In this document: positions 3,498 to 44,159 of the stretch, one piece after another
Position numbering within the stretch: the stretch's first letter is position 1
How the letters are laid out: each line of letters opens with the position of its first letter
Source: a bacterium
GTDB lineage: Bacteria > Planctomycetota > Planctomycetia > Pirellulales > Pirellulaceae
NCBI GenBank assembly: GCA_030430075.1
Contig: JAUIGN010000007.1
Span: forward strand, 86,458-150,457
Direction: 5' to 3'
DNA length: 64,000 nt
Notes under the pieces: generated by a model
What the model was told of the DNA's origin: nothing
What the model saw: only the letters and a program-made list of their open reading frames with translations
Database searches by the model: none
Translations under genes and position numbers: made by a program

Positions 3498-6400
3498 TTA
3501 GTGATTGGTAATGAATTCCTGGGTGTTCAACAGGGCCCACAACAGGTCGCGGAGCCCGACGGCTCGATCGTCCTGCCCCGCCAGATGCGACCGGCAATCG
3601 GCCAGTTCGACATTCGTCGGTTGGCGCGACAAGGTACGCAGATAGGCGGCCCGGATCAATTCCTCGTCGCTCAGGTGCTCCGGCTCACCGGCAGACACTT
3701 GGGCCAACCAACCGTCCGCGCGGTCCAGCATGTCGAGCAGCTCCTGGTCGTTGCGCACATAGAGGGCCTGGAGGAGCGTCGGCTCGCCCTGACGCTCGCA
3801 ATCGCAATTTGTGGTGCGTAGCGGCTTACCGAAGATAAGGAGCGAGAAATCGATGGCGCGGGTTTGGAACGACACCGGATGTTGGCCGATCTTCCGACCC
3901 GCGACGTTCGTGTCCACCTGGGCCATCAAGGTATCGTTGCCCGTCGCTTGGAGCAGTCCGTCGATGGCGACTTCGGCGGGCAGACGACGCAGGACGGCAT
4001 GACTGAAGTTGCGGGTGTCGGTTCGGTTGGTGGCATTGGGGCGCCAGTCGCGCTGGTAGGTGTCGCTGGACGCGATCGTTCGATGGAGCCATTTGAGATC
4101 GTAGCCGCTGGCGACAAAACCGTCCGCCAGGTAGTTCAGCAAACGCTTGTTGCTGGGCGGGTTCGCCTGATTCAGGTCGTCGGGTGGATCGATGATGCCG
4201 ATATTGAAATAGTTGGCCCAGATCCGGTTGACCATGGATTTGGCGAAGTAACGGTTCGGTTCGTTCAACATCCATTGCATCAGCGGCTCGCGGGGGTCGC
4301 GATACTGGCTCAGATCGAGGTCCGGGCCGCCGAGCAGCCGGGCTGGTTGCGGCTTGTCGCCGGGCGCCGCAATGTAAACTTCTTTCCAAGGGATCCGCCT
4401 CCCTTCGGCCGCCACACGAAGATAGCTCTGCCGCCGCAAGGCGGCGGTGTTCAGTTTGACCGGGACCCCCAAGCGGTTCCGTTCCAGTTCATGGCGGGCG
4501 GCGGCATCGGGCGCGACGCCGGCTTTGATCCGAGTGAAAAATTCCGTGAATCGTTCAAAGTCCTGCTTGGACCATTGATCGTAGGGGTGCTTGTGGCACT
4601 GAGCGCAATCAAGCCGCAGCCCCAGGAAGGTGTATCCGAATGCCAACGCCTTCTCCGCCGGTTGGGACAGGTTGCTACGAAACCAGAAGTGGGGCATCGA
4701 GTTTCCCGGGGCGGCAAAGTCCGCCGGATCGGTCCGCCGCGTGTACAGGCTCTGCTGTTCAATAAAGTCGGCGTACGTTTGACCGGCGGGCCGGCTGCGA
4801 GCCAGGATAATGCCTGCGGCAATCTTGTCCCAGCCGTCGTTGTCGGCAATCCGGCGCTCCATCCAGGCACGCCATTGGGCGGCCACCGGGCGGGCCATTT
4901 CCGTGCTTCCCAGATACCCGGCGTTGCTGCCCGTGAGATCGCAGAGCCGCGTGGTCCACCAGGTCACATAGGCTGGGCGTTCCAGCAACTCGTCGATCTT
5001 GCGATGGCGCTTGTCCGGTGCCGCGTCCGCCATGAACGCCAGCACTTCCTGGGGTGTTGGGAGTGTGCCGGTCAAGTCGATGCTGACGCGGCGGAGGAAT
5101 GCCTCGTCCGAACAGACACGCGAAGGAACGATGCCCAATCGCCGCAGCTTCGTCAGCACCAGCGCATCGATTGGGGTGGGGGTGGCGACCTGCGGATAGC
5201 GTTCCCCGGTCTCATCGCTGACCGGCAAGACGACCTGGTTGGACGCGATACCGTTGTCGTAGAACGAAACCACGTAGGTGTCGCCTTTCCCCGTAGCACG
5301 TACCAGCCCGTCGCCACTTACGGTCGCCACGTCTTCATCTTGGGACTCGAAACGCGTGAGGCAGGTAACGTCTTCGCGGCTGCCGTCGGACCAGACAGCG
5401 ACCGCCCGCAACTGGACGGTTTCATCGGCTGCACCGAAGGTGATTTCGGCGGGCGTCACGTCCAACCGGACGAAGGTCGCCGGTTCCGGCGGGAGTCCCC
5501 GCGCGCCCGCTTCGATCCAGCGGCGCAATAGTTTCTGCTGCCACTCGCCAGGCGGCAGCCGCAGTCCACCTTCGTGCTCGTCCGCGGACGTCGGCTTGTT
5601 CACGATGAGGCTTGACGCCGGCGCGTCGAGGTCAATTCGCGCATGCAGGTTTTCCAGGTCCATCTCGAAGTCGTATCCGAACATGGAGAGACGGAAACCT
5701 CCCTGTCCCTGAAACGAACCATGACAGGCACGTCCGTTGCAGCCCAGCCGTCCCAGCAGCGGAATGACGTGGCGTTGGAAGTCGGGCACGGTCGACGCGT
5801 CCACCAGGCGCTGCACAATGGGCTCAAGCAGCGCGCCCTGCTCAGCGATGGAATCATCCCGTCGGTGGGTCTGGGTAACGAGCGTCGCCGTATCGCCGGT
5901 CCGAGGGTCGATCTCGCGGGCAATCGCCGGGTCGAAGTACAGTTGCGTCTTCGGCAGCAGGGTCTTGAGCCGCCTTGCCGCGTCCGGCGTCAGCGGCGTC
6001 TTATACAGTTCGAGGTGCTGCAACTGCTTAAGCCGGCCTAATACATCGACCGCCTGGTCGTCGACGTCGGTTCCGTTCAAGCAGAGGTGTTCGAGTTCTG
6101 CGAGCGACTCGAGATGCCGCGCGCCGCTGCCGTCAAGCGGACAGTTCGCCAAGAACAAGTACTTTAAGCGGGGCAGACGTGACAAAGTTGCGAGCCCCGC
6201 ATCCGTGACCCGGGTGTCACTGAGGACCAGCGTCGATAGCGCCCGTAATTCAGCCACCGCCGCCAACCCGTGATCGGTCAGGTCGGTACCGGGTGCGGAG
6301 AAGACTTCCAGTTTTGTCAGTTGACGAAGTGAGTCGAGGCCGGCATCGCTGATGCGGGAGCCGTCGAGATACAGACGGCGCAGGTTGACCAGCTTGCTGA

Positions 6401-10833: not shown

Positions 10834-11976
10834 TCATTCACCTGCCTGGCGGCGAAGGACTTCCTGGGCTGTCTTGGTATCGGGGAAATCCTTCAAGATC
10901 TTCGTGTAATAATACTTCGCCATGCGTTCGTTCTTGATCGCTTCCATGTCGTCGGCAAACCCCAGCCACTTGGCCGCCTTCCGTTCGGCCAACGATTCTT
11001 TCTCCTTCTTGCTGCCTGCCGCGGCCTTTGCAAGGCCGGTGCCCGTAACCCGACCGCCGCTGGTGACAAAACGATAGTCGCCGCCGGTCAGCTTGGAAAT
11101 CTCATTCATGTTCCGCCGACTGGCGGGATCTTCGAAGGCGATGGAATGGACCGGAATCTTCCCCGGGTTCGATCGTTCCACGACGGTCTTCGCATCGACC
11201 ACTTCTCCGCCGAGAAAGCCGGCCGGTTTGGGCTTGTTGAATTTTCCATCCGAGAGAAAGAAGACGGCGCTCGGTGATAGCTTGAGCCCCACATGCAACG
11301 CCCGCTGGGGATGGGTGGAACCGGTGGCTTTGATCGAATTGAGCCATTCTCGCAGACGCGTCTTGTTTTCTTCCGTGGCGGGCAGCATCGCCGGCGTCAG
11401 GGATTCTTCGTCGAACATCTGCCGGGTGGAACTGGCAAACAGCAGCACGTAAAAAAGTTGCTCCTCGTGGAGTTGCTCGATCGATCGCAGCAGCTCGTTG
11501 ACGGCGCGCCGCAACCGCCGACCACTCCCTTTGTTCATGCTGCCGGAAACGTCCAGCACGTACACGAAGCGATTGCCGTTCGCCTGAGTGCCGAAGAACG
11601 AGGCCTGACCCTGGCCGCCGTTGTTTCCTGTTGCCGTCCCGGCCGTTACGTGATTCTTGCCCGTCCCTTTTTCGCCCGTCGCCAGGTTGGTTAGCGCAAA
11701 CGTGACGTCCAGAGATGCTTCTTCCTGGGCGCCGAGCACGTCCAGCAGCAACGGCTCGTCCTCTGCCGTCATTTCCGGCTGTGCGAGCATGACATCCAGC
11801 ACCACCAGCTCGGCGCCAGGCTCGTCAACCGTGACTTCGAGGTCAATGGGATCGCGGTGCAAGCCCATCGGCAGGAGCGTGAGAAGAAGGCCGCTGATGA
11901 TCGTCAAGTGAACAAGAAAGGAGATCCCGTACCCCGAGTAGAGGCAACGATCCGCTCGGTCGAGCAACCGATCCAT
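10834..11976 (-). CDS. von Willebrand factor A (VWA) domain membrane protein
   Basis: An N-terminal TM helix is followed by a MIDAS-containing VWA segment, FVYVLDVSGSMNKGSGRRLRRAVNELL...FYVLLFASS. Confidence 0.7.
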   Translation of the reverse strand: MDRLLDRADRCLYSGYGISFLVHLTIISGLLLTLLPMGLHRDPIDLEVTVDEPGAELVVLDVMLAQPEMTAEDEPLLLDVLGAQEEASLDVTFALTNLATGEKGTGKNHVTAGTATGNNGGQGQASFFGTQANGNRFVYVLDVSGSMNKGSGRRLRRAVNELLRSIEQLHEEQLFYVLLFASSTRQMFDEESLTPAMLPATEENKTRLREWLNSIKATGSTHPQRALHVGLKLSPSAVFFLSDGKFNKPKPAGFLGGEVVDAKTVVERSNPGKIPVHSIAFEDPASRRNMNEISKLTGGDYRFVTSGGRVTGTGLAKAAAGSKKEKESLAERKAAKWLGFADDMEAIKNERMAKYYYTKILKDFPDTKTAQEVLRRQAGE

Positions 11977-36985: not shown

Positions 36986-38839
36986 GTGCTCAAGACGATG
37001 GGCCATCGTACGCTGAAACAGACCGTCGATGATCTGGCTGTGGCCGGCCGGTTGATTCGCATTCGCCACGAGGTCGATCCGGACTTGGAAGCTGCAGAGA
37101 TTCACCGCCGCGTCTACCAGGCGGGGGGCCCGGCCCTGTATTTCGAGAACGTGAAGGGGTGCCGGTTTCCGATGGTCTCGAATCTCTTCGGAACCCTGGA
37201 GCGAGCCCGCTTCATTTTTCGCGACACGTACGAATCCGTGCGGCGCTTGATCGAATTGAAGGTCGACCCGAACGCATTCTGGCGTCGGCCCGGTCGCTAT
37301 TGGAAAACACCGTTCACCGCACTGGGAATGCTCCCCCGATTTACTCGGCGGGCGCCCATCCTGGCCAATCAGACGACGATCAGCCGGCTCCCCCAGGTCA
37401 AGTCGTGGCCGCGCGACGGAGGCGGCTATGTCCTCCTGCCCCAGGTGTACAGCGAAGATGTCGACCGGCCCGGCTTGATGCATTCCAACCTGGGCATGTA
37501 TCGAATTCAGTTGACCGGCGGCCAATACGTGACGGATCAGGAGATTGGGCTCCACTACCAGATCCATCGCGGGATCGGCGTCCACCAGGCGGCCGCCGCG
37601 CGCGCGGGCCAGCCGTTTCGGGTGAATATCTTCGTCGGTGGAACGCCGGCCATGACGTTGGCCGCGGTGATGCCGTTGCCCGAGGGAATGTCGGAGCTGA
37701 CGTTTGCGGGGGCACTGGCCGGGCATCGCATTCCCATGGTGCGACGGCCCGACGGGTTGCCCTGCTACGCCAACGCCGACTTTGTCATCACCGGAACGGT
37801 GGCGCCGGATCGGACCAAGCCGGAAGGGCCATTCGGTGACCACCTGGGGTACTATAGTCTGGAGCACGAATTTCCGGTGCTCGAAGTCGACCACGTTTAC
37901 CATCGCGACGGCGCCATCTGGCCCTTCACGGTGGTGGGACGTCCGCCGCAAGAGGACACGGTTTTCGGCGAGCTGATCCATGAGTTGACGGGTCCGATCA
38001 TCCCCACCGTGATACCGGGTGTGCATGCCGTCAATGCGGTCGACGCGGCGGGCGTTCATCCGTTGATGCTGGCGGTCGGCAGCGAGCGATACACGCCGTA
38101 TCGGCGTGATTCGGCACCTGCCGAGCTGCTCACGCAAGCGAATGCGATTCTGGGGCAGGGTCAGATGTCGCTGGCCAAGTACCTGGTGATCGCCAATCGT
38201 GCGGACGACCCCGAGCTTGACGTGAACGACATCGGTCCGTTCTTCCAGCATGTCTTGCGCCGCGTTGATTGGCGCCGCGATTTGCATTTCCAAACGCGGA
38301 CCACCATCGACACGCTTGACTATTCGGGCAGTGGTCTCAACCAGGGGTCCAAGCTGGTCATTGCCGCGTCCGGCGAACCGGTTCGCGAGTTGGGGACGAG
38401 CGTGCCCGTCGAATTGCGGCTGCCTGCCGGCTACTCCCGTCCGGCTGTCTGTCAGCCCGGCATCCTGGCAGTCCAGGGGCCCGCCTATCCGGGCGGTTCG
38501 AATGGCGACGATTCTCGCGTTGCGCCGTTTTGTGACGCCTGTCGGGGCCAGTCGTCACTGGAGCCCTTCCCGCTGGTGGTGATCGTCGACGACAGCGAAT
38601 TCGTCGCTCGCACGCTGGCCAACTTCCTGTGGGTCGTGTTTACGCGGAGCAATCCGGCTGCCGATGTGGAGGGGATCGACGCGTTTGTGGACGCGAAGCA
38701 CTGGGGTTGCCGAGGTTCGTTGGTGATTGATGCGCGGATCAAACCGCACCACGCGCCGCCCCTGGAGGAAGATGCGGAAGTGACGAGAAAAGTTGATGCC
38801 TTGGCCGCTCGGGGCGGGCCACTTGCCCCTTACTTATAG
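36986..38839 (+). CDS. UbiD family decarboxylase
   Basis: The N-terminus AGGPALYFENVKGCRFPMVSNLFGT matches the conserved UbiD N-terminus. Confidence 0.8.
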   Translation: MLKTMGHRTLKQTVDDLAVAGRLIRIRHEVDPDLEAAEIHRRVYQAGGPALYFENVKGCRFPMVSNLFGTLERARFIFRDTYESVRRLIELKVDPNAFWRRPGRYWKTPFTALGMLPRFTRRAPILANQTTISRLPQVKSWPRDGGGYVLLPQVYSEDVDRPGLMHSNLGMYRIQLTGGQYVTDQEIGLHYQIHRGIGVHQAAAARAGQPFRVNIFVGGTPAMTLAAVMPLPEGMSELTFAGALAGHRIPMVRRPDGLPCYANADFVITGTVAPDRTKPEGPFGDHLGYYSLEHEFPVLEVDHVYHRDGAIWPFTVVGRPPQEDTVFGELIHELTGPIIPTVIPGVHAVNAVDAAGVHPLMLAVGSERYTPYRRDSAPAELLTQANAILGQGQMSLAKYLVIANRADDPELDVNDIGPFFQHVLRRVDWRRDLHFQTRTTIDTLDYSGSGLNQGSKLVIAASGEPVRELGTSVPVELRLPAGYSRPAVCQPGILAVQGPAYPGGSNGDDSRVAPFCDACRGQSSLEPFPLVVIVDDSEFVARTLANFLWVVFTRSNPAADVEGIDAFVDAKHWGCRGSLVIDARIKPHHAPPLEEDAEVTRKVDALAARGGPLAPYL

Positions 38840-38919: not shown

Positions 38920-40854
38920 ATGAATTCGGAATTGCTTAACTGGCTCTCCATACCCCTCGTGGCGTCGCTCGGCTACGAGCACGTGCCGTGGTGGGGAAAC
39001 GGGCTCTTGGCACTCTGGCTATGGGCCTTGGGAGCCAATCTGGGAAGCTTCATGAACGTGGTTGTTTACCGGGTTCCGCTGGGGCGAAGCGTTGTCCACC
39101 CGGGTTCACGCTGCCCCGGCTGCAGCCATGCGATCCAGTGGTACGACAACATTCCCGTTCTGAGCTGGACGCTGCTGCGAGCCCGCTGTCGCTATTGCAA
39201 GGTGACCATCTCTTCCCGTTACCCGTGCGTCGAGGCGCTGGTGGCGACCGTTGTTCTGGTGGTTGGGTTTCTGGGGCCGGTTTCCCTGGGGCGCAACCTT
39301 CCGCACGCGTTGCACCCTGCCGAGTTCCAATACCAGACGGCGTGGCTCTGGCTGCTGTTCGCCTATCACGTGCTGCTGCTATGCACCCTGATTTGTGCCG
39401 CCCTGATCCGTTATGACGACCAACCGACGCCCTTGCGGCTCTACCTCCCGGCACTGCTTGTCGGCTTCCTGGCGCCCATGTTGCCGCCGATGGAGATGCT
39501 CGGCAGCTTTCGTCCGGTTGCCTTTGCCGGCCTGCCGGAATTGTCCGCACGAGCGGTGGCGATCTGGGATGGCGTGACAGGACTGGCGGTCGCTGCGGCG
39601 CTTGGCTTGTTCGCATCCCTGGCGGCCAGGGATATCCGTCGTTCCACGCTGCTGTCGTTATGCGAGTTGCCGGCAGTGATGAGCGTCGGCCTGTTCCTTG
39701 GCTGGCAGGCGGCCTGCGCACTCGCTTGCTATGCGGCCGCGGCCCATTTGCTGACGGCCATCGTTACCCAAGGCACGGCCTGGGCTCGCCGCATCCCATG
39801 GCTGGCCCACCTGACCTGTGGATGCCTGTTGTTGATCCTCCTCTGGCGCCCGCTTGTCGAGCGTGCCCCGTGGCTGGGCGAGGGTGCGACCATTGCCACA
39901 TTCGGCCTGGCCGCCGGCGTCGTCGCCGCGTGTACCTACTTGACTTCGCTGATCCGTGATGAAGCGGCGGAAGAGACTTTGCCTGAACCAACGGAAAGTG
40001 TGCCCATGACCCCGGATGAAAAACTGGCAGCCATCTTGAGTTCACCCAGCTATCGGCTGGCGGAACTGGATACCGAGTTCCTGCAACGCGATGAACTTCG
40101 CCCGGTGAGGATGCAGTTGGAGCTGCTCAAGCCCGAGATGGCATTGGAGGAACAAAACATCAACTCCACGATCGTGGTCTTTGGCGGCACGCAGGTCGTC
40201 GAGCCGGCCGCGGCGGAGGCGCGACTGGCTGCAGCGCGGCAGGAACTGGCCGCAGACCCGGACGATCCGGCTCGGCAGCGAGCCGTTTCACGTGCTGAAC
40301 GAATCCTGGCCAAGGCGGGGAGCTATGACGCGGCACGCGAGTTCGGGAAACTGGTCTCTGCTTCCTGCCAGGTCGATCAACGTTGCCACTATGTGATCAC
40401 GACCGGCGGCGGACCAGGCATCATGGAGGCCGCCAATCGGGGCGCGCACGACGCCGGTGCGAAGTCGATTGGCTTGAACATTACCCTGCCCCACGAACAA
40501 ACGCCGAATCCATACATCACGCCCGCCCTCTGCTTCCAGTTTCACTACTTCGCGCTGCGCAAATTGCACTTCCTGTTCCGCGCGCGGGCGCTCGTGGTCT
40601 TTCCCGGAGGCTTCGGGACGCTTGACGAATTGTTCGACGCGTTGACGTTGCGGCAGACCGGGCGGATGCAGGCAATTCCCATCATCCTCTACGGTCGTGA
40701 GTATTGGAACCGCGTGATCGACTTCGAATTCCTGGCTGATGAGGGCGTCATCGCCGATGAGCACCTCGATTTGATCAGCTATGCCGAAACACCCGCGGAA
40801 GCCTGGTCGCAGATTCAAGCGTTCCATGAGGAGACGGCGGCCGTAGATCGCTAA
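38920..40854 (+). CDS. Fusion protein with an N-terminal prepilin-peptidase-like (A24) membrane domain and a C-terminal LOG/SLOG (TIGR00730) domain
   Basis: The N-terminus LGSFMNVVVYRVP...SRCPGCSHAIQWYDNIPVLSWTLLRARCRYCKVTIS is the zinc-ribbon N-domain of type IV prepilin peptidases. It has multiple TM helices. The C-terminus YVITTGGGPGIMEAANRG...PGGFGTLDELFDAL is a LOG core. The reading frame is continuous. Confidence 0.7.
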   Translation: MNSELLNWLSIPLVASLGYEHVPWWGNGLLALWLWALGANLGSFMNVVVYRVPLGRSVVHPGSRCPGCSHAIQWYDNIPVLSWTLLRARCRYCKVTISSRYPCVEALVATVVLVVGFLGPVSLGRNLPHALHPAEFQYQTAWLWLLFAYHVLLLCTLICAALIRYDDQPTPLRLYLPALLVGFLAPMLPPMEMLGSFRPVAFAGLPELSARAVAIWDGVTGLAVAAALGLFASLAARDIRRSTLLSLCELPAVMSVGLFLGWQAACALACYAAAAHLLTAIVTQGTAWARRIPWLAHLTCGCLLLILLWRPLVERAPWLGEGATIATFGLAAGVVAACTYLTSLIRDEAAEETLPEPTESVPMTPDEKLAAILSSPSYRLAELDTEFLQRDELRPVRMQLELLKPEMALEEQNINSTIVVFGGTQVVEPAAAEARLAAARQELAADPDDPARQRAVSRAERILAKAGSYDAAREFGKLVSASCQVDQRCHYVITTGGGPGIMEAANRGAHDAGAKSIGLNITLPHEQTPNPYITPALCFQFHYFALRKLHFLFRARALVVFPGGFGTLDELFDALTLRQTGRMQAIPIILYGREYWNRVIDFEFLADEGVIADEHLDLISYAETPAEAWSQIQAFHEETAAVDR

Positions 40855-40879: not shown

Positions 40880-41170
40880 TATTGGCTGGGAGACCTGACG
40901 GTCGTGGGGCGTGCGGGGTCGGGAGACCCGCGCACAGCGCCGTTCCAGCTCGCGCACAGCGCCGTTCCAGCTCGCGCACAGCGCCGTCCCAACCCGCGCA
41001 CAGCGACGACTCCTGCACGGCGCGGGTCTCTGACCCCGCCGAAGTTCCAGCTCGCGCACAGCGCCGTTCCAACCCGCGCACAGCGCCTTTCCAGTTCGCG
41101 CACAGCGACGACTCCTGCTCGGCGCGGGTCTCTGACCCCGCCGAAACCGCCGACCGCAGGTCTCCCGCGC
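40880..41170. repeat. Intergenic repeat element C. It is a tandem cgcgcacagcgccgttccagct-like array (~7 units) with one truncated core (41015..41045) and one full 46-nt core (41118..41165).
   Basis: A direct read shows these parts. It lies between convergent genes. Confidence 0.8.
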
Positions 41171-41181
41171 CTCGCTGCATG

Positions 41182-42027
41182 TCAAGGGGCGAGCCGGTAA
41201 AAGCGGCTGGCCGTGCCGCCGAAGATCATGTCGAGCTCGTCGCTACCGAGCTGCCCGACGATTTCCCGCAACGCGCCGTGTACCTCTGCGTAAGTCGCGG
41301 CCAGTTCGCAGACCGGCCAATCGGAACCGAACATGCATCGCTGGGGACCGAACGCCTCCAGCGCGGTGTCGACGTAAGGACGCAAGTCGGCCGGCTTCCA
41401 GTCATTCCAATCCGCCTCAGTGACCATTCCGGACAACTTGCAGTAGACATTGGGATGGCGGGCGGCGGCCCGCAGATCGTCCCGCCAGCCGGCGGTTGTC
41501 CCCGCCGCGATCAACGGCTTGGCCAGGTGGTCAATCACCAGCGGCAAGTCGGGCAGCGAATTGGCCAGCGGGGCGGCGTGCTTCAAGTGCCTGACGTAAA
41601 ACAGCAGATCGAAGGGAACCTGGTGCTTCTCCAGCACCTGCAAACCTCGGACGACGTCCGGGCGGATGATGAAGTCGTCGTCGGGTTCGTCTTGCGTGAC
41701 GTGCCGAATACCGACGAACTTGGGGTGGTCCTTGAACTCCAGCAGCTGGGATTCACACGTCTCGCTGGTCAGGTCAACCCACCCGACGACGCCCGCGATG
41801 AAATCGTATTGCTCGGCCAGCCGCAAGACCCAACGATTTTCAGCCACATCGTGCTGGGTCTGTACAAACACCGAGCCATCAACGCCGGTCTGCGCCAGTT
41901 GCGGTGCCAGGTCCTCCGGCAGGTAGTCGCGACGGATCGGTTCCAGGCCGGGCGTGTCGAGCCATCCGAAGTTGAAGGGCTGGCTAAGTTGCCAGAAGTG
42001 CTGATGGGCATCAATAACGTGAGACAT
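41182..42027 (-). CDS. Amidohydrolase-2 family protein, a candidate sugar lactonase such as L-fuconolactonase
   Basis: It has MSHVIDAHQHFW, the TIM-barrel metal-dependent hydrolase start. The lactonase role is inferred only from the neighbourhood. Confidence 0.7.
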   Translation of the reverse strand: MSHVIDAHQHFWQLSQPFNFGWLDTPGLEPIRRDYLPEDLAPQLAQTGVDGSVFVQTQHDVAENRWVLRLAEQYDFIAGVVGWVDLTSETCESQLLEFKDHPKFVGIRHVTQDEPDDDFIIRPDVVRGLQVLEKHQVPFDLLFYVRHLKHAAPLANSLPDLPLVIDHLAKPLIAAGTTAGWRDDLRAAARHPNVYCKLSGMVTEADWNDWKPADLRPYVDTALEAFGPQRCMFGSDWPVCELAATYAEVHGALREIVGQLGSDELDMIFGGTASRFYRLAP

Positions 42028-42044
42028 GATTCAACTCCTCTCTC

Positions 42045-42105
42045 GTTCCACGAACACAACGGTTCGGCGCGGGTCTCCGAAACCGCCGACTGAAGGTCTC
42101 CGTTT
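42045..42105. repeat. Intergenic repeat element D, a partially deleted 46-nt core
   Basis: The sequence is ggcgcgggtctccgaaaccgccgactgaaggtctccg. Confidence 0.6.
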
Positions 42106-42279
42106 CCCATTGTGACTACGGTCCGTTGGTCCGGGTGATTGTCGACGGCAGGTTCCAGTGCGATGCAAGGCTGGATTACATCATGCACCGCATGACTTTC
42201 GGAATGACGAAAGATCGCCTGCCGTACGTCACCCGCAGCAACGATGGCCGACTCCAGACAGGCTTGGTTGACGGGTTTC

Positions 42280-42726
42280 TCAATCCATGCGAACGCCGAT
42301 CGTGAGCAACACGTTCGCGAATCGCTGTTGGTCCGCAGTCTGGATCGTAAGAATATGGTCCGGTGTCGCGACGGCGTCGTAGAAGGCCCATTTTTCGATC
42401 GGTTCGAGCTCCAATTCGACGCCCGCCTCCTGCATGGTCTGGCGGTAATCCGACCACACGGGCGGGTCTTCCGTCAATGCGTACTGACCGGTGGTTTCGT
42501 ACATCATCGTGTTGACCCCTTCGACCGGCAGCGCCGAGAGGACCGCTTGCAGCACCTGGTTGCAGGTGACCACGCCCGGCATGAGGTTGAGGTGCACCAA
42601 CCGGGCGTGGGGGCCCCGCTTGGAGGACGCCGGGTAGTTGCCGTCGGCGATGAGCACTTTGCCGTGATGGCCGCCGGCTGCCAGAATCGCGTTGATTTCT
42701 GGATGAATGAGCTGATGTTTGAGCAC
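42280..42726 (-). CDS. RbsD/FucU family sugar mutarotase
   Basis: It reads MLKHQLIHPEINAILAAGGHHGKVLIADGNYP, which is the RbsD/FucU fold. Confidence 0.8.
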   Translation of the reverse strand: MLKHQLIHPEINAILAAGGHHGKVLIADGNYPASSKRGPHARLVHLNLMPGVVTCNQVLQAVLSALPVEGVNTMMYETTGQYALTEDPPVWSDYRQTMQEAGVELELEPIEKWAFYDAVATPDHILTIQTADQQRFANVLLTIGVRMD

Positions 42727-42875
42727 GTGAAAGCCTCCTGATTGGATGACGAATCGGCGGATGCGGCCGGCCAGGATTGGTATCGCGGCGAGCGGGTGAA
42801 GGCGTGGATCGCCCAGTTGGGGAGCGGCATCGGCACGTCATCCGCACAGCACGCCCCGAGTGCCGGGAACGGTCC

Positions 42876-44159
42876 TTACATTCCGTCGGTCAGCGCGACG
42901 AGATGGCGACTGAAATGGTCGGCCAGGACGTCTCGATAGGTCCCCGGATTGGCCTCCAGGACGGTCCGCACAGCAGGCCCGAACTCCGGATGAGTCAGTA
43001 CGGAACCGAATGTGCAGTGGAGGATCTGGCGGCCCGGTTCGGTAAAGCCCTTGCCGGCAGGCACGTCGTCCCAGCGTTCCAGGTAGACTTGCTCGAGCTC
43101 CACCGCGTCCGCGATCTGGTTGCCGGGTTTGACCGTGTCGTTGGTGGCGGCGACGTGGTAGGTTGCCTTGTCGGTATCGTATCGCGAACGGCCGAAGTCG
43201 ATGATTTGTCGAAACAGGGGCTCGTCATGCCTGGCGACGACGCGAAGTGCTTCGAGGTAGCTGGTGCCCGCCGTCTTGACGTGGAACCGGCCCTTGGTGG
43301 CACGCGCCAGGGCCGTGTAGATCGAGACTTTGTCGGAACCGGAGTGCAGGCTCAATTTGTAGGGGCCCAACTGGTCGGCAAGTGCCGCATGTTCGTTGAG
43401 TGATGCTTCCAGCTCCGTCAGGTCTCCCTTGTAGTCGACCCCTTTCTCAAAGTCGCCGATGAAGCGGGGCGCCAGGCTGACGAGCTTCATTCCCCGGCTG
43501 ACACACTGGTCCGCGATGATGAAATGCTCGGCCAACGTGGTCGGCTGATCCGTTTCATCGACGCTCAGTTCGATCTCATGATCGCGGCCCGCCGCGTCGT
43601 GGACGGCGCGGATATGATCGGCCAACGCGATGGCATGATTGATCGCCGGTCCGTATTTGACGGCGCACCGCATGCAGGCTTGCTCATCCAAGGCCACCAC
43701 GGTTCCTGTGGCCAGTTTGACTTGGCGGCCCAGGTAGCTTTCAAACCAGTCAATCTCGTCGCGCACCTCGGCAAACTTTTCGCGGAGCGTAGGCTCGTCG
43801 TAAGTGTCGGCCTGTTCATCCACGTTATCCGAAGGGTCGATGGTAAAGAAAGTGAAGCCGGCGGCGAAGGTGCGATCGACATCTTCCGTCGTCTTCAAGT
43901 GATCGGCGTCGGCGCCTGTCTTGCCCGTCCACCCGGCTGCCTGCATTCCATCGAGGGCGTCTTTCATGACCTCTTCCGGACTGCGGCTGGTTCGCGCCAT
44001 TTCTCGGATCGACTGTTGGGGATAGATCGGTTCGATGCCGGCGCCGGACCGCTGCATCGCCGCCACGTGGCCGGGGGTGGCCAGACCGATGCGGTCGCCG
44101 AAGCCGAAGCTGGGAGCCAGTCCCAGCGTGACGCAGGGGGTAGGATTGGGAGTGCTCAT
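42876..44159 (-). CDS. GatZ/KbaZ/UxaE-like TIM-barrel protein, a sugar(-acid) epimerase or aldolase-subunit family. The call is tentative.
   Basis: It shows weak resemblance (GADADHLKT, TIDPSD) to the tagatose-bisphosphate aldolase non-catalytic subunit family. It is embedded in a sugar-catabolic cluster. Confidence 0.3.
   Translation of the reverse strand: MSTPNPTPCVTLGLAPSFGFGDRIGLATPGHVAAMQRSGAGIEPIYPQQSIREMARTSRSPEEVMKDALDGMQAAGWTGKTGADADHLKTTEDVDRTFAAGFTFFTIDPSDNVDEQADTYDEPTLREKFAEVRDEIDWFESYLGRQVKLATGTVVALDEQACMRCAVKYGPAINHAIALADHIRAVHDAAGRDHEIELSVDETDQPTTLAEHFIIADQCVSRGMKLVSLAPRFIGDFEKGVDYKGDLTELEASLNEHAALADQLGPYKLSLHSGSDKVSIYTALARATKGRFHVKTAGTSYLEALRVVARHDEPLFRQIIDFGRSRYDTDKATYHVAATNDTVKPGNQIADAVELEQVYLERWDDVPAGKGFTEPGRQILHCTFGSVLTHPEFGPAVRTVLEANPGTYRDVLADHFSRHLVALTDGM

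Follow-up and report, generated by a model that had tools for sequence, protein, structure and literature searches.

A gene encoding what looks like a prepilin peptidase with a Lonely Guy (LOG) domain at its C-terminus raises the question of why these two proteins should be joined, and which part of the product is kept by selection. We addressed it for one such gene in a 64-kb stretch of DNA, referred to here as the window. As the initial annotation had proposed, the gene is a single ORF, and its product comprises a PilD-type zinc ribbon (PF06750), then a membrane domain of several helices and, C-terminal to it, a full type-II LOG (Table 1). The motifs on which that annotation relied were all found (C65xxC68...C90xxC93, WYDNIP at residues 74-79, GGGPGIMEAAN at 496-506 and PGGFGTLDEL at 562-571). 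A Pfam search of the 644-aa protein detected both of the expected parts, A24_N_bact and LOG (PF03641, residues 502-631, E 3e-29), as well as PF18306. The same three Pfam domains occurred in more than 100 full-length homologues from Pirellulales/Planctomycetota (46-73% identity). The architecture had been put forward as one not known to be described, and a literature search of limited coverage (prepilin peptidase, SLOG, Lonely Guy, Planctomycetes) returned none.

The explanation that we find best overall, and moderately favor, is that a zinc-ribbon membrane module holds an active LOG at the cytoplasmic membrane face. The sole enzymatic activity would then reside in the C-terminal type-II LOG, a predicted nucleoside 5'-monophosphate phosphoribohydrolase that would split the base off AMP-like nucleotides to release free base and ribose 5-phosphate. 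The N-terminal part would be a PilD/GspO paralogue that has lost both catalytic aspartates and does not cleave prepilins. Selection would keep TM1, the four-Cys zinc ribbon and TM2 on the cytoplasmic face as the docking partner of LOG, which would be attached covalently in the fusion and non-covalently wherever neighboring genes encode the two partners. The other helices of the peptidase bundle would be a decaying relic, lost altogether in a large sister clade, and a ninth helix would bring the C-terminus into the cytoplasm.

Table 1. Features of the fusion gene and of the gene upstream, in window positions
Feature	Residues	Position	Strand	Basis
UbiD-family decarboxylase gene, upstream	617 aa	36986..38839	+	Pfam UbiD_N/UbiD/UbiD_C
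Pseudo-prepilin peptidase + type-II LOG fusion	644 aa	38920..40854	+	Complete ORF, ATG start
TM1	24-54	38989..39081	+	AF2 helix 24-54; 55% mean pairwise identity
A24_N_bact domain, cytoplasmic zinc ribbon and start of TM2	37-115	39028..39264	+	PF06750, E 9e-31; hhalign to canonical peptidases
Four-Cys zinc site C65xxC68-X21-C90xxC93	65-93	39112..39198	+	Family conservation, PilD-like spacing
Degenerate A24 (GxGD) core, TM3-TM8	136-315	39325..39864	+	
Former first active-site motif L162-I-R164-Y-D166-DQPTPLRLYLP177	162-177	39403..39450	+	Catalytic Asp position is R164
Former GxGD region	246-263	39655..39708	+	Asp2 position is E249; GspO 'GYGDFKLLAAAGAWCGWQ' aligns here
TM9, extra C-terminal helix	325-344	39892..39951	+	AF2 helix 325-344; missing from canonical GspO
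Linker, flexible, acidic/Pro-rich	345-375	39952..40044	+	pLDDT <50 at 352-360; 28% mean pairwise identity
Internal ATG	Met363	40006..40008	+	At start position of split LOG genes; SD-like GGAAAG at 39993-39998
Type-II LOG module: N-terminal extension, helical insert (~424-484), Rossmann core	376-640	40045..40839	+	
GGGPGIMEAAN nucleotide-binding loop	496-506	40405..40437	+	G496-G500 and M502-N506 invariant, 60 aligned homologues
Predicted catalytic Arg	R547	40558..40560	+	CgLOGII Arg155 equivalent via 5wq3 alignment; invariant, 60 homologues
PGGFGTLDE, type-II signature D569 and predicted catalytic E570	562-570	40603..40629	+	Identical to CgLOGII 170-178; invariant

The C-terminus had been annotated as a canonical LOG core, which agrees with its motifs and its model scores. 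PF03641 scored 102.4 bits (cutoff 27), and TIGR00730 (cutoff 96.35) scored 95.0 bits on the full protein and 97.6 bits on residues 366-644, the C-terminal 279 aa. The PpnN model NF038390 gave 25.2-27.6 bits against a cutoff of 450. Sequence matches in the PDB were 1wek, 5wq3, 5zi9 and 9us2 (E 1e-33 to 1e-36), and the closest solved structures in Foldseek were all type-II LOGs (target TM-score ~0.84, 30-34% identity). The AF2 model placed a helix at residues 391-411 ahead of the strand at 417-421, corresponding to the type-II N-terminal extension. The LOG is specifically type II and has, besides this extension, a helical insert of ~55-60 aa. Its core was also the most conserved region of the fusion, at 79% mean pairwise identity. 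In CgLOGII, Arg155 and Glu178 are the catalytic residues, the latter closing the motif 170-PGGFGTLDE-178 (PMC5379747). R547, D569 and E570 correspond to Arg155, Asp177 and Glu178. Judged by these residues, the LOG active site is intact, and both the phosphoribohydrolase activity and its substrate are predicted on this basis. A hexameric assembly centered on the N-terminal helix has been reported for type-II LOGs (PMC5379747), and such assembly, set against membrane tethering, was counted against the docking explanation.

The initial annotation had also considered a sensing role of the SLOG type. We found no support for it: PADLOC returned nothing, the neighbors were housekeeping genes and the catalytic residues were invariant. 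For the same reasons a role in a defense or conflict system was rejected, with 0 PADLOC families for the protein and both of its neighbors. The idea of a SAM/SAH-handling LOG coupled to a methyltransferase likewise found no support. A role in the turnover of nucleotides or RNA is more likely; LOG might instead yield a modified purine base, perhaps in concert with the neighboring UbiD-family enzyme. Stand-alone orthologues of this LOG (45-67% identity) were found in many phyla. A contig scan using LOG patterns returned mostly these stand-alone LOGs of other phyla and three A24_N-linked loci. The commonest neighbor of the stand-alone orthologues in other phyla was a beta-CASP/RMMBL ribonuclease-type gene (eight loci), and such a gene also sits between the A24_N and LOG partners at loci L002 and L088; both observations hint at nucleotide turnover.

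Within the window, the neighbors of the fusion gene encode M17, UbiD, Amidohydro_2, RbsD/FucU and UxaE proteins, and association with pilin, type IV pilus or type II secretion genes was not seen; the window held no ORF with a prepilin motif and no other PilD-like ORF. The UbiD gene deserves attention, as it lies directly upstream on the same strand at nine of the 15 loci examined and within a few kb at two more; its linkage is about as frequent as that of LOG. These loci include all three with a mini form of the membrane protein (see below) as well as L095 and L096, where the pseudo-peptidase comes after UbiD and LOG is missing from the vicinity. These LOG-less loci and the frequent UbiD linkage count against the docking explanation, which does not account for the UbiD link. 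UbiD, the A24_N module and LOG, joined by an SDR in the mini clade, could instead form a membrane-associated metabolic module in which the zinc-ribbon protein organizes UbiD and LOG to act on a substrate that is lipid-soluble or a modified purine; chemistry related to quinones or to prenylated bases would be an example. In line with this, the UbiD linkage is kept between loci whose membrane halves share only 35-50% identity, and the best NCBIfam model for UbiD is that of a menaquinone-pathway decarboxylase (TIGR03701). However, the score was 346 bits against a cutoff of 495.9, which makes the pathway assignment a tentative one, and L082, L087 and L094 have no UbiD. Moreover, phyla without the cluster commonly have this LOG subfamily as a stand-alone protein, no known reaction links UbiD with LOG, and the gene order may simply be inherited, given that a single order or class supplied all of the loci. 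We therefore regard a metabolic module as unlikely. A more specific candidate, in which LOG would be a futalosine-type nucleosidase beside an MqnL-like UbiD, was rejected because the LOG subfamily is widespread as a stand-alone protein in many other phyla that lack the cluster and UbiD scored below the equivalog cutoff.

The N-terminus was correctly recognized at the outset as a PilD-type zinc-ribbon domain, as borne out by the PF06750 match and the spacing of the four cysteines. The segment before TM1 has a net charge of -1.0 and is predicted outside, and the zinc-ribbon loop (+4.6) is predicted inside. Among 114 family members, C68, C90 and C93 were conserved in all and C65 in 113. The pair preceding the third cysteine was Gly (74) or Ala (40) at column 88, followed mostly by Arg (57) or Lys (47) at column 89. 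Mean pairwise identity was 51-58% over TM1, the zinc ribbon and TM2, compared with 31% for the peptidase core and 19% for TM9. Furthermore, the module exists without the core: at least 120 clusters of mini proteins of 119-125 aa consist of A24_N only (TM/Zn-ribbon/TM), and the gene order UbiD, mini protein, LOG was observed at L003, L097 and L098. Because the zinc-ribbon module is better conserved and persists alone as a mini protein, it appears to be the functional partner of LOG, rather than the helix bundle. The label of membrane anchor given to the N-terminal part understates the partner, since the better-conserved TM1/ribbon/TM2 unit persists by itself beside LOG in a large clade. Physical contact of LOG with the zinc ribbon is inferred, and so is the reason for localization at the membrane.

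In PilD, the CXXC-X21-CXXC motif binds Zn and is required for N-methylation while being dispensable for cleavage (PMC3584216). The same source describes the role of the zinc ribbon as less fully explored and suspected to be structural or for substrate binding. The N-terminal module could accordingly have kept the second activity of PilD. It would be a dedicated N-methyltransferase that depends on zinc, or would bind pilins, and its targets would be type IV pilin-like proteins after cleavage; LOG would assist it by handling or sensing adenine nucleotides. Both the cysteine motif and the Gly/Ala-basic pair are kept, and PilD needs these elements for methylation and not for cleavage (PMC3584216); in addition, N_methyl/SBP_bac_10 genes lie upstream at one related locus, L082. 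Yet the mini form, with two TM helices and a ribbon of ~45 aa, has no core to provide a pocket for SAM or substrate and still keeps its link to LOG. The window lacks any ORF with a prepilin motif and any other PilD-like ORF, the neighbors at most loci are UbiD and M17 rather than pilus or type II secretion genes, and no known chemistry joins LOG to N-methylation. Retained methylation or pilin binding is, on balance, quite improbable.

Between the zinc-ribbon module and LOG lies the membrane domain proper. PF01478, the catalytic A24 model, had no match in the query core at E<=10, in the same test in which E. coli GspO scored 104.9 bits, and no match at E<=0.001 in 139 related representatives. 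The absence of PF01478 cannot separate an unrelated domain from a degenerate one, so we turned to profile and fold comparison. The family profile matched a canonical A24 peptidase profile, built from five annotated plasmid and chromosomal sequences, with an hhalign probability of 99.9 (E 5e-35); against the single GspO sequence the probability was 33% (E 4.5e-4). The proposed descent of the membrane domain from an A24 prepilin peptidase is thus supported. In the profile alignment, the column opposite the first catalytic Asp was variable, and the column opposite the GxGD Asp lacked conservation. The initial annotation had offered the Asp of IRYDDQ as a candidate first catalytic residue, which we could not uphold: MAFFT, hhalign against GspO and hhalign against the canonical profile all agreed in aligning the catalytic position (GspO D94, motif 'IDxxxxxLPD') with R164, two residues upstream of D166. 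Column 164 is variable among the 114 proteins (R47/E24/D24/W6/Q5/H4). D166 is an Asp in 104 of the 114 and in 147 of 150 representatives, and by alignment it is a family-specific conserved Asp at +2. The second Asp had been reported missing, and E249 indeed occupies its place in the context 'SLCELP', with the glycines and the Lys of the GxGD(F/Y)K motif gone. Column 249 was E41/P31/A14/R7/W5/D4 in the 114 proteins and hydrophobic in the 150 representatives, and none of the 114 fusion proteins had an acidic residue at both sites. The protein is, as suggested beforehand, very probably an inactive pseudo-peptidase; with both catalytic aspartates lost, it is predicted to be unable to cleave prepilins.

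Not everything in the core has drifted. Downstream of E249, G257...L-G261-W-Q263 is kept, and H150, T156, G257, G261, W262 and Q263 are retained. Together with the near-invariant D166, these residues suggest that the core, where retained, is not a purely passive anchor, which counts against the docking explanation. An active protease with a relocated site, for instance D166 paired with another acidic residue, would make use of an Asp lying close to the former one, and D/N/E217 is fairly conserved. We consider this very unlikely, as the core contains no second invariant acidic residue, the entire GxGD-K motif has been erased, core conservation is low and the mini clade is devoid of any core.

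GspO terminates opposite residue ~316 of the query, so TM9 lies beyond the peptidase. Loop charges alternate over the 114 family members, with the C-terminus predicted inside, which points to an inner-membrane protein of about nine membrane segments with the N-terminus outside and the C-terminus inside. The AF2 model of the membrane half alone had a pTM of 0.88 vs 0.65 for the full-length protein, so the arrangement of the domains is not confidently predicted, a further point against the docking explanation. In some relatives, the A24_N part and LOG are encoded by separate adjacent genes (L082, with a 32-nt overlap, L084, L093 and L094), and in others LOG is one gene away from the A24_N gene (L088, L004 and L002). 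The split LOG proteins had no hydrophobic segment. The family is unusual in that three stages coexist in it: fusion of a dead core to LOG, a dead core encoded by a gene of its own, and deletion of the core down to the mini protein. Separately, an IF-2B fragment N-terminal to A24_N in P0201 is probably a contig-edge gene call.

Stop codons separating the two domains in other assemblies had been named as grounds for rejecting the fusion. They do occur, at L082, L084, L093 and L094, and the fusion stands nonetheless; since split and fused forms are interleaved in the NJ tree as natural variation, the separating stops rather strengthen the functional link. With the C-terminus placed in the cytoplasm by the ninth helix, a single stop codon gained or lost within the linker would suffice to switch between the two forms. 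The prospect that an assembly error or a spurious frameshift joined two neighboring genes is close to nil: although the parts are at times separate in the same frame with one stop between them (L084 and L094), the identical 644-aa protein is encoded by the independent Logan assembly ERR3428548, over 100 fused homologues come from many samples, and coding periodicity is unbroken (GC3 in frame 1 of 0.63-0.82 throughout), with stops in both non-coding frames at the junction. The 644-aa gene is a real fusion.

The linker may also serve as a start site. Met363 was conserved in 100 of the 114 proteins, with Val in 11, amid variable adjacent positions, and its context (Table 1) suggests internal initiation. 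This leads to a broader reading in which the A24_N zinc-ribbon module is autonomous and nucleates a Pirellulales membrane complex of UbiD and type-II LOG (plus SDR in the mini clade), with both tethered LOG and free LOG made via Met363. The module would predate or outlive prepilin processing and take part in a hitherto undescribed pathway, whose purine or quinone substrate would be modified or associated with the membrane. Taken jointly, these proposals have a low probability. If true, they would give a first handle on the PilD zinc-ribbon domain's own function.

The findings also bear on how these genes are named. Public databases list the family as 'prepilin peptidase', 'leader peptidase/N-methyltransferase' or 'TIGR00730 family protein'. 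The names with 'peptidase' are in all likelihood wrong, and inventories of pilus and type II secretion genes in Planctomycetota that use them would be inflated as a result. A literature search of limited coverage turned up no account of bacterial GxGD (A24) prepilin peptidases forming a catalytically dead lineage. The mini clade isolates the PilD zinc-ribbon domain and offers a simple 120-aa system in which to study it. Finally, the family connects an uncharacterized and widespread subfamily of long type-II LOGs with the membrane and with a UbiD-family enzyme; in several phyla, a beta-CASP ribonuclease is a further connection. All of these are concrete leads to non-cytokinin roles of bacterial LOGs.

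Compared with known systems, the fusion shares with PilD/GspO (MEROPS A24A) the TM1/CXXC-X21-CXXC zinc ribbon/TM2 unit, a homologous membrane core, the 'LP' prolines P171/P177 and G257...G261-W-Q263. It differs in the loss of both catalytic aspartates and of GxGD-K, in an undetectable PF01478, in the extra C-terminal TM helix and C-terminal LOG, in D166 at +2 and in the lack of a pilus or type II secretion context. The preflagellin peptidase FlaK (PDB 3S0X), a solved GxGD membrane protease, is active, has neither zinc ribbon nor LOG and is only 10% identical. With the type-II LOGs CgLOGII (Cg1261, 5WQ3), TtLOGII (TT1465, 1WEK), S. coelicolor LOG (5ZI9) and N. meningitidis YgdH (9US2), it has in common an identical PGGFGTLDE, the catalytic Arg/Glu, the type-II Asp and the N-terminal helix extension. 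Unlike them, it carries the ~55-60-aa helical insert after strand 1, a conserved 40-aa N-terminal extension ('SPSYRLAE...LELLKPE') and a covalent tether to a membrane protein. PpnN (E. coli YgdH), a nucleotide 5'-monophosphate nucleosidase, exemplifies LOG enzymes whose task is nucleotide homeostasis rather than cytokinin synthesis. The fusion resembles it in the LOG-fold catalytic core and the general type of reaction, whereas the match is weak (25-28 bits vs 450) and the flanking domains of PpnN are missing. The iRhoms, catalytically dead homologues of intramembrane proteases that serve as scaffolds, provide an analogy only: there too a polytopic protease fold was kept after catalytic loss and reused for a non-proteolytic purpose. 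The fold and family are unrelated, and in the proteins studied here it is the fold itself that is being lost while the accessory zinc ribbon persists.

The fusion protein is encoded by one uninterrupted ORF in the ORF listing of the window, and Pfam detected both A24_N_bact and LOG domains in it, as initially annotated, along with a weak match to SLOG cluster 4. TIGR00730 (cutoff 96.35 bits) scored 95.0 bits on the whole query and 97.6 bits on its C-terminal 279 aa alone. The catalytic domain Peptidase_A24 (PF01478) was absent from the query even at E ≤ 10, in the same search that gave 104.9 bits for the canonical prepilin peptidase GspO of E. coli. Frame 1 GC3 was 0.63-0.82 over the entire ORF, with stops in both remaining frames across the domain junction and no sign of a suspected frame break, and an independent Logan assembly contained the identical 644-aa protein and kept the genes upstream of it. 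Searching 5.8 billion proteins retrieved more than 100 full-length homologues (46-73% identity, same three Pfam domains); those that were named came from Pirellulaceae, Planctomycetaceae or Planctomycetota MAGs and were labeled 'prepilin peptidase' or 'TIGR00730 family'. GC3 continuity, the second assembly and these fused homologues exclude an artefact; the fusion is real.

Features of the window, of the fusion protein (aa) and of loci from other genomes compared for gene context (L002-L098)
Feature	Position	Description
UbiD-family decarboxylase	window 36986-38839 (+)	617 aa
Fusion ORF	window 38920-40854 (+)	644 aa
SD-like motif	window 39993-39998	GGAAAG, ~7 nt 5' of Met363 codon
Met363 codon	window 40006-40008	ATG
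Intergenic tandem repeat	window 40929-41145	22-nt unit CGCGCACAGCGCCGTTCCAGCT, ~3 copies, twice; nested in 102-nt period x2, 92% matches
Amidohydro_2, RbsD/FucU-family, UxaE tagaturonate-epimerase-like genes	window 41182-44159 (-)	convergent, downstream
A24_N_bact PF06750	aa 37-115	E 9e-31
LOG PF03641	aa 502-631	E 3e-29
LOG N-terminal extension	aa ~376-415	conserved
LOG insert	aa ~424-484	helical
Helices (AF2 models)	aa 24-54, 100-118, 136-165, 176-197, 210-237, 247-260, 262-282, 294-315, 325-344
L082		pseudo-peptidase (373 aa), LOG (289 aa), 32-nt overlap
L084		M17, UbiD, pseudo-peptidase (336 aa), LOG (285 aa)
L093		pseudo-peptidase (364 aa), LOG (261 aa)
L094		M50, pseudo-peptidase (406 aa), LOG (287 aa)
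L088		pseudo-peptidase, beta-CASP MBL, LOG
L004		UbiD, pseudo-peptidase, PIN-domain ORF, LOG
L004 PIN-domain ORF	10920-11582	220 aa, PF01850, E 6e-14
L095		UbiD, pseudo-peptidase; LOG not nearby
L096		M17, UbiD, pseudo-peptidase; LOG not nearby
L086		M17, UbiD, fusion
L087		thioredoxin, fusion; without UbiD
Mini proteins	L003 9917-10291; L002 ~4830-5170; L097 6001-6378; L098 6001-6360
Mini-clade LOG	L097 6407-7408; L098 6450-7439	329-333 aa
Beta-CASP/RMMBL genes	L005 8480-9871; L002 5340-6728; L088 1776-3170	also 7 more loci within L012-L075

The top PDB sequence matches of the LOG half were TT1465 (1wek), CgLOGII (5wq3), S. coelicolor type-II LOG (5zi9) and N. meningitidis YgdH (9us2), with E values of 1e-33 to 1e-36, and Foldseek with the full-length AF2 model (pLDDT 85.5) retrieved the same set at target TM-scores of ~0.84. 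CgLOGII uses catalytic Arg155 and Glu178, the nucleotide-binding motif 170-PGGFGTLDE-178 and the type-II signature Asp177 (PMC5379747). By sequence alignment, the query equivalents are R547, E570, the identical 562-PGGFGTLDE-570 and D569, all invariant among 60 aligned homologues. The LOG half, already recognized as a canonical core, is of type II and has an intact active site. Compared with solved type-II LOGs, the module adds an N-terminal extension and an insert. Stand-alone proteins made up of the entire ~280-aa module are also encoded, at 45-67% identity, in Proteobacteria, Cyanobacteria, Nitrospirota, Acidobacteriota and others.

The canonical A24 motifs are VID94FRTQLLPD and GYGD158FKLLAAAGAWCGWQ in GspO of E. 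coli K-12. Three independent alignments gave one register: MAFFT of GspO, the query and 150 relatives; hhalign of the family profile with GspO alone (E 4.5e-4); and hhalign of a 139-sequence family profile with a five-sequence profile of annotated A24 peptidases (GspO, EtpN of pO157 and three Pseudomonas plasmid enzymes), which covered the zinc ribbon and entire core in 235 columns (probability 99.9%, E 5e-35). In this register the first catalytic Asp corresponds to R164 and the GxGD Asp to E249. Among 114 fusion proteins, column 164 held R (47), E (24), D (24), W (6), Q (5) or H (4), and column 249 held E (41), P (31), A (14), R (7), W (5) or D (4); none had acidic residues at both. An exhaustive search covered 1.84 billion cluster representatives; in the 150 best of them, column 164 was E (59), Q (28), R (16), A (11) or D (10) and column 249 was hydrophobic. 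PF01478 matched none of 139 of these representatives and A24_N matched all 139. Structural motifs of the A24 core survive (P171, P177, G182, G257, G261-W262-Q263). The initial annotation was right that the GGGDVK-type second Asp is missing and in suggesting an inactive peptidase, but its candidate first Asp, in IRYDDQ, is D166, two residues past the catalytic position. D166 hardly varies across the family (D in 104/114 fusion proteins and 147/150 representatives), although canonical A24 enzymes differ at this position. Judged from these alignments, the membrane half derives from a prepilin peptidase and, with both catalytic Asp lost, is dead.

Averaged across all 114 family members, net charge was positive for loops predicted inside (zinc ribbon loop +4.6, L3-4 +1.1, L5-6 +1.5, L7-8 +2.3) and zero or negative for segments predicted outside (N-terminus -1.0, L2-3 -0.3, L4-5 0.0, L8-9 -0.1). 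We infer nine membrane segments, counting 247-260 and 262-282 separately, in a chain that starts outside and ends inside. Since GspO terminates opposite query residue ~316, helix 325-344 is an addition of the fusion protein that would bring the chain back into the cytoplasm. Split LOG proteins lack any hydrophobic segment (19-residue hydropathy at most 1.4), which also suggests a cytoplasmic LOG.

The linkage recurs in three architectures. Fusion is conserved in the homologues described, but the domains are encoded by separate adjacent genes in L082, L084, L093 and L094. Split forms were interleaved among fused ones in an NJ tree of membrane halves, and in L084 and L094 the LOG is in-frame with the upstream gene, with a stop codon between; gain or loss of a linker stop codon therefore seems to toggle between split and fused genes. 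A mini form consists only of TM, zinc ribbon and TM (119-125 aa, always ending in TPWL). The L003 protein retrieved at least 120 similarly sized clusters carrying only PF06750, Pirellulales wherever named, annotated as prepilin peptidase or N-methyltransferase. In L003, L097 and L098 the mini-protein gene follows UbiD and is itself followed by LOG and then SDR; in L002 it is followed by beta-CASP and then LOG, and UbiD adjoins on the other strand. Overall, LOG was fused or at most two genes away in 13/15 loci, and UbiD was directly upstream in 9/15 and nearby in two more. The longer mini-clade LOG begins with ~65 aa of charged, low-complexity sequence, a tail like the fused-form linker, and contains no TM segment. 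In L004, from one Planctomycetia MAG, both UbiD and the pseudo-peptidase gene carry frameshift-like breaks. A 436-aa metagenomic protein (P0201) carries an N-terminal IF-2B family fragment (MtnA/eIF2B-like, profile positions 167-238) before A24_N and probably reflects a gene call that was merged or ran into a contig edge.

Although the linker is otherwise hypervariable, 100/114 fusion proteins share Met363 and 11/114 have V instead, and split LOG genes have their start codon at this position. Together with the SD-like motif before it and GGAGGAG ~7 nt before the equivalent site in fused L086, this conservation suggests that internal initiation might yield a free LOG besides the tethered one.

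The query zinc site is C65xxC68-X21-C90xxC93. All 114 family members have C68, C90 and C93, and 113/114 have C65, in line with the prepilin-peptidase-type N-domain originally proposed; the ribbon is intact. P. aeruginosa PilD binds zinc through the same CXXC-X21-CXXC motif, on which N-methylation but not cleavage depends, with contributions to methylation from a Gly and a basic residue beside the third Cys (PMC3584216). In the family, G/A then R/K precede Cys3. The module could thus be read as retaining PilD-like methyltransferase activity, but we disfavor this because the mini form has no core to form a SAM or substrate pocket. Mean pairwise identity among the 114 fusion proteins was 55% in TM1, 58% in the zinc ribbon, 51% in TM2, 31% in the peptidase-derived core, 19% in TM9, 28% in the linker, 65% in the LOG N-extension, 58% in its insert and 79% in its core. 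We favor a zinc-ribbon module that would act as a conserved partner retaining LOG at the cytoplasmic membrane face, the peptidase core being a probable relic.

A ribonuclease-type beta-CASP/RMMBL metallo-beta-lactamase, aCPSF1/Cas14-like with scores below cutoffs, recurred more than any other family (8 loci) directly beside the ~75 stand-alone LOG orthologues scanned in other phyla. Such a gene also lies between the A24_N gene and LOG in L002 and L088. Beta-CASP RNases can release 5'-NMPs, substrates of LOG-type enzymes, so this neighbourhood hints at a role in nucleotide/RNA turnover, away from cytokinin signalling. UbiD recurs upstream of the A24_N module, also at LOG-less loci; the window copy has a ~150-aa C-terminal extension past its Pfam domains and scored 346 bits against its nearest model, TIGR03701 (menaquinone-pathway decarboxylase; cutoff 495.9). 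The tandem repeat lies just 3' of the fusion ORF, before the Amidohydro_2 gene of what looks like an unrelated sugar-acid utilisation cluster. PADLOC gave no defence match for the fusion protein or either neighbour, and neither a further PilD-like ORF nor one with a prepilin motif was present in the 64-kb window.

In the literature searched, no published description of this architecture was found. Each of the two domains is familiar, and public databases already list their combination under automatic names; what appears new is the coupling of a dead A24 peptidase lineage to a type-II LOG.
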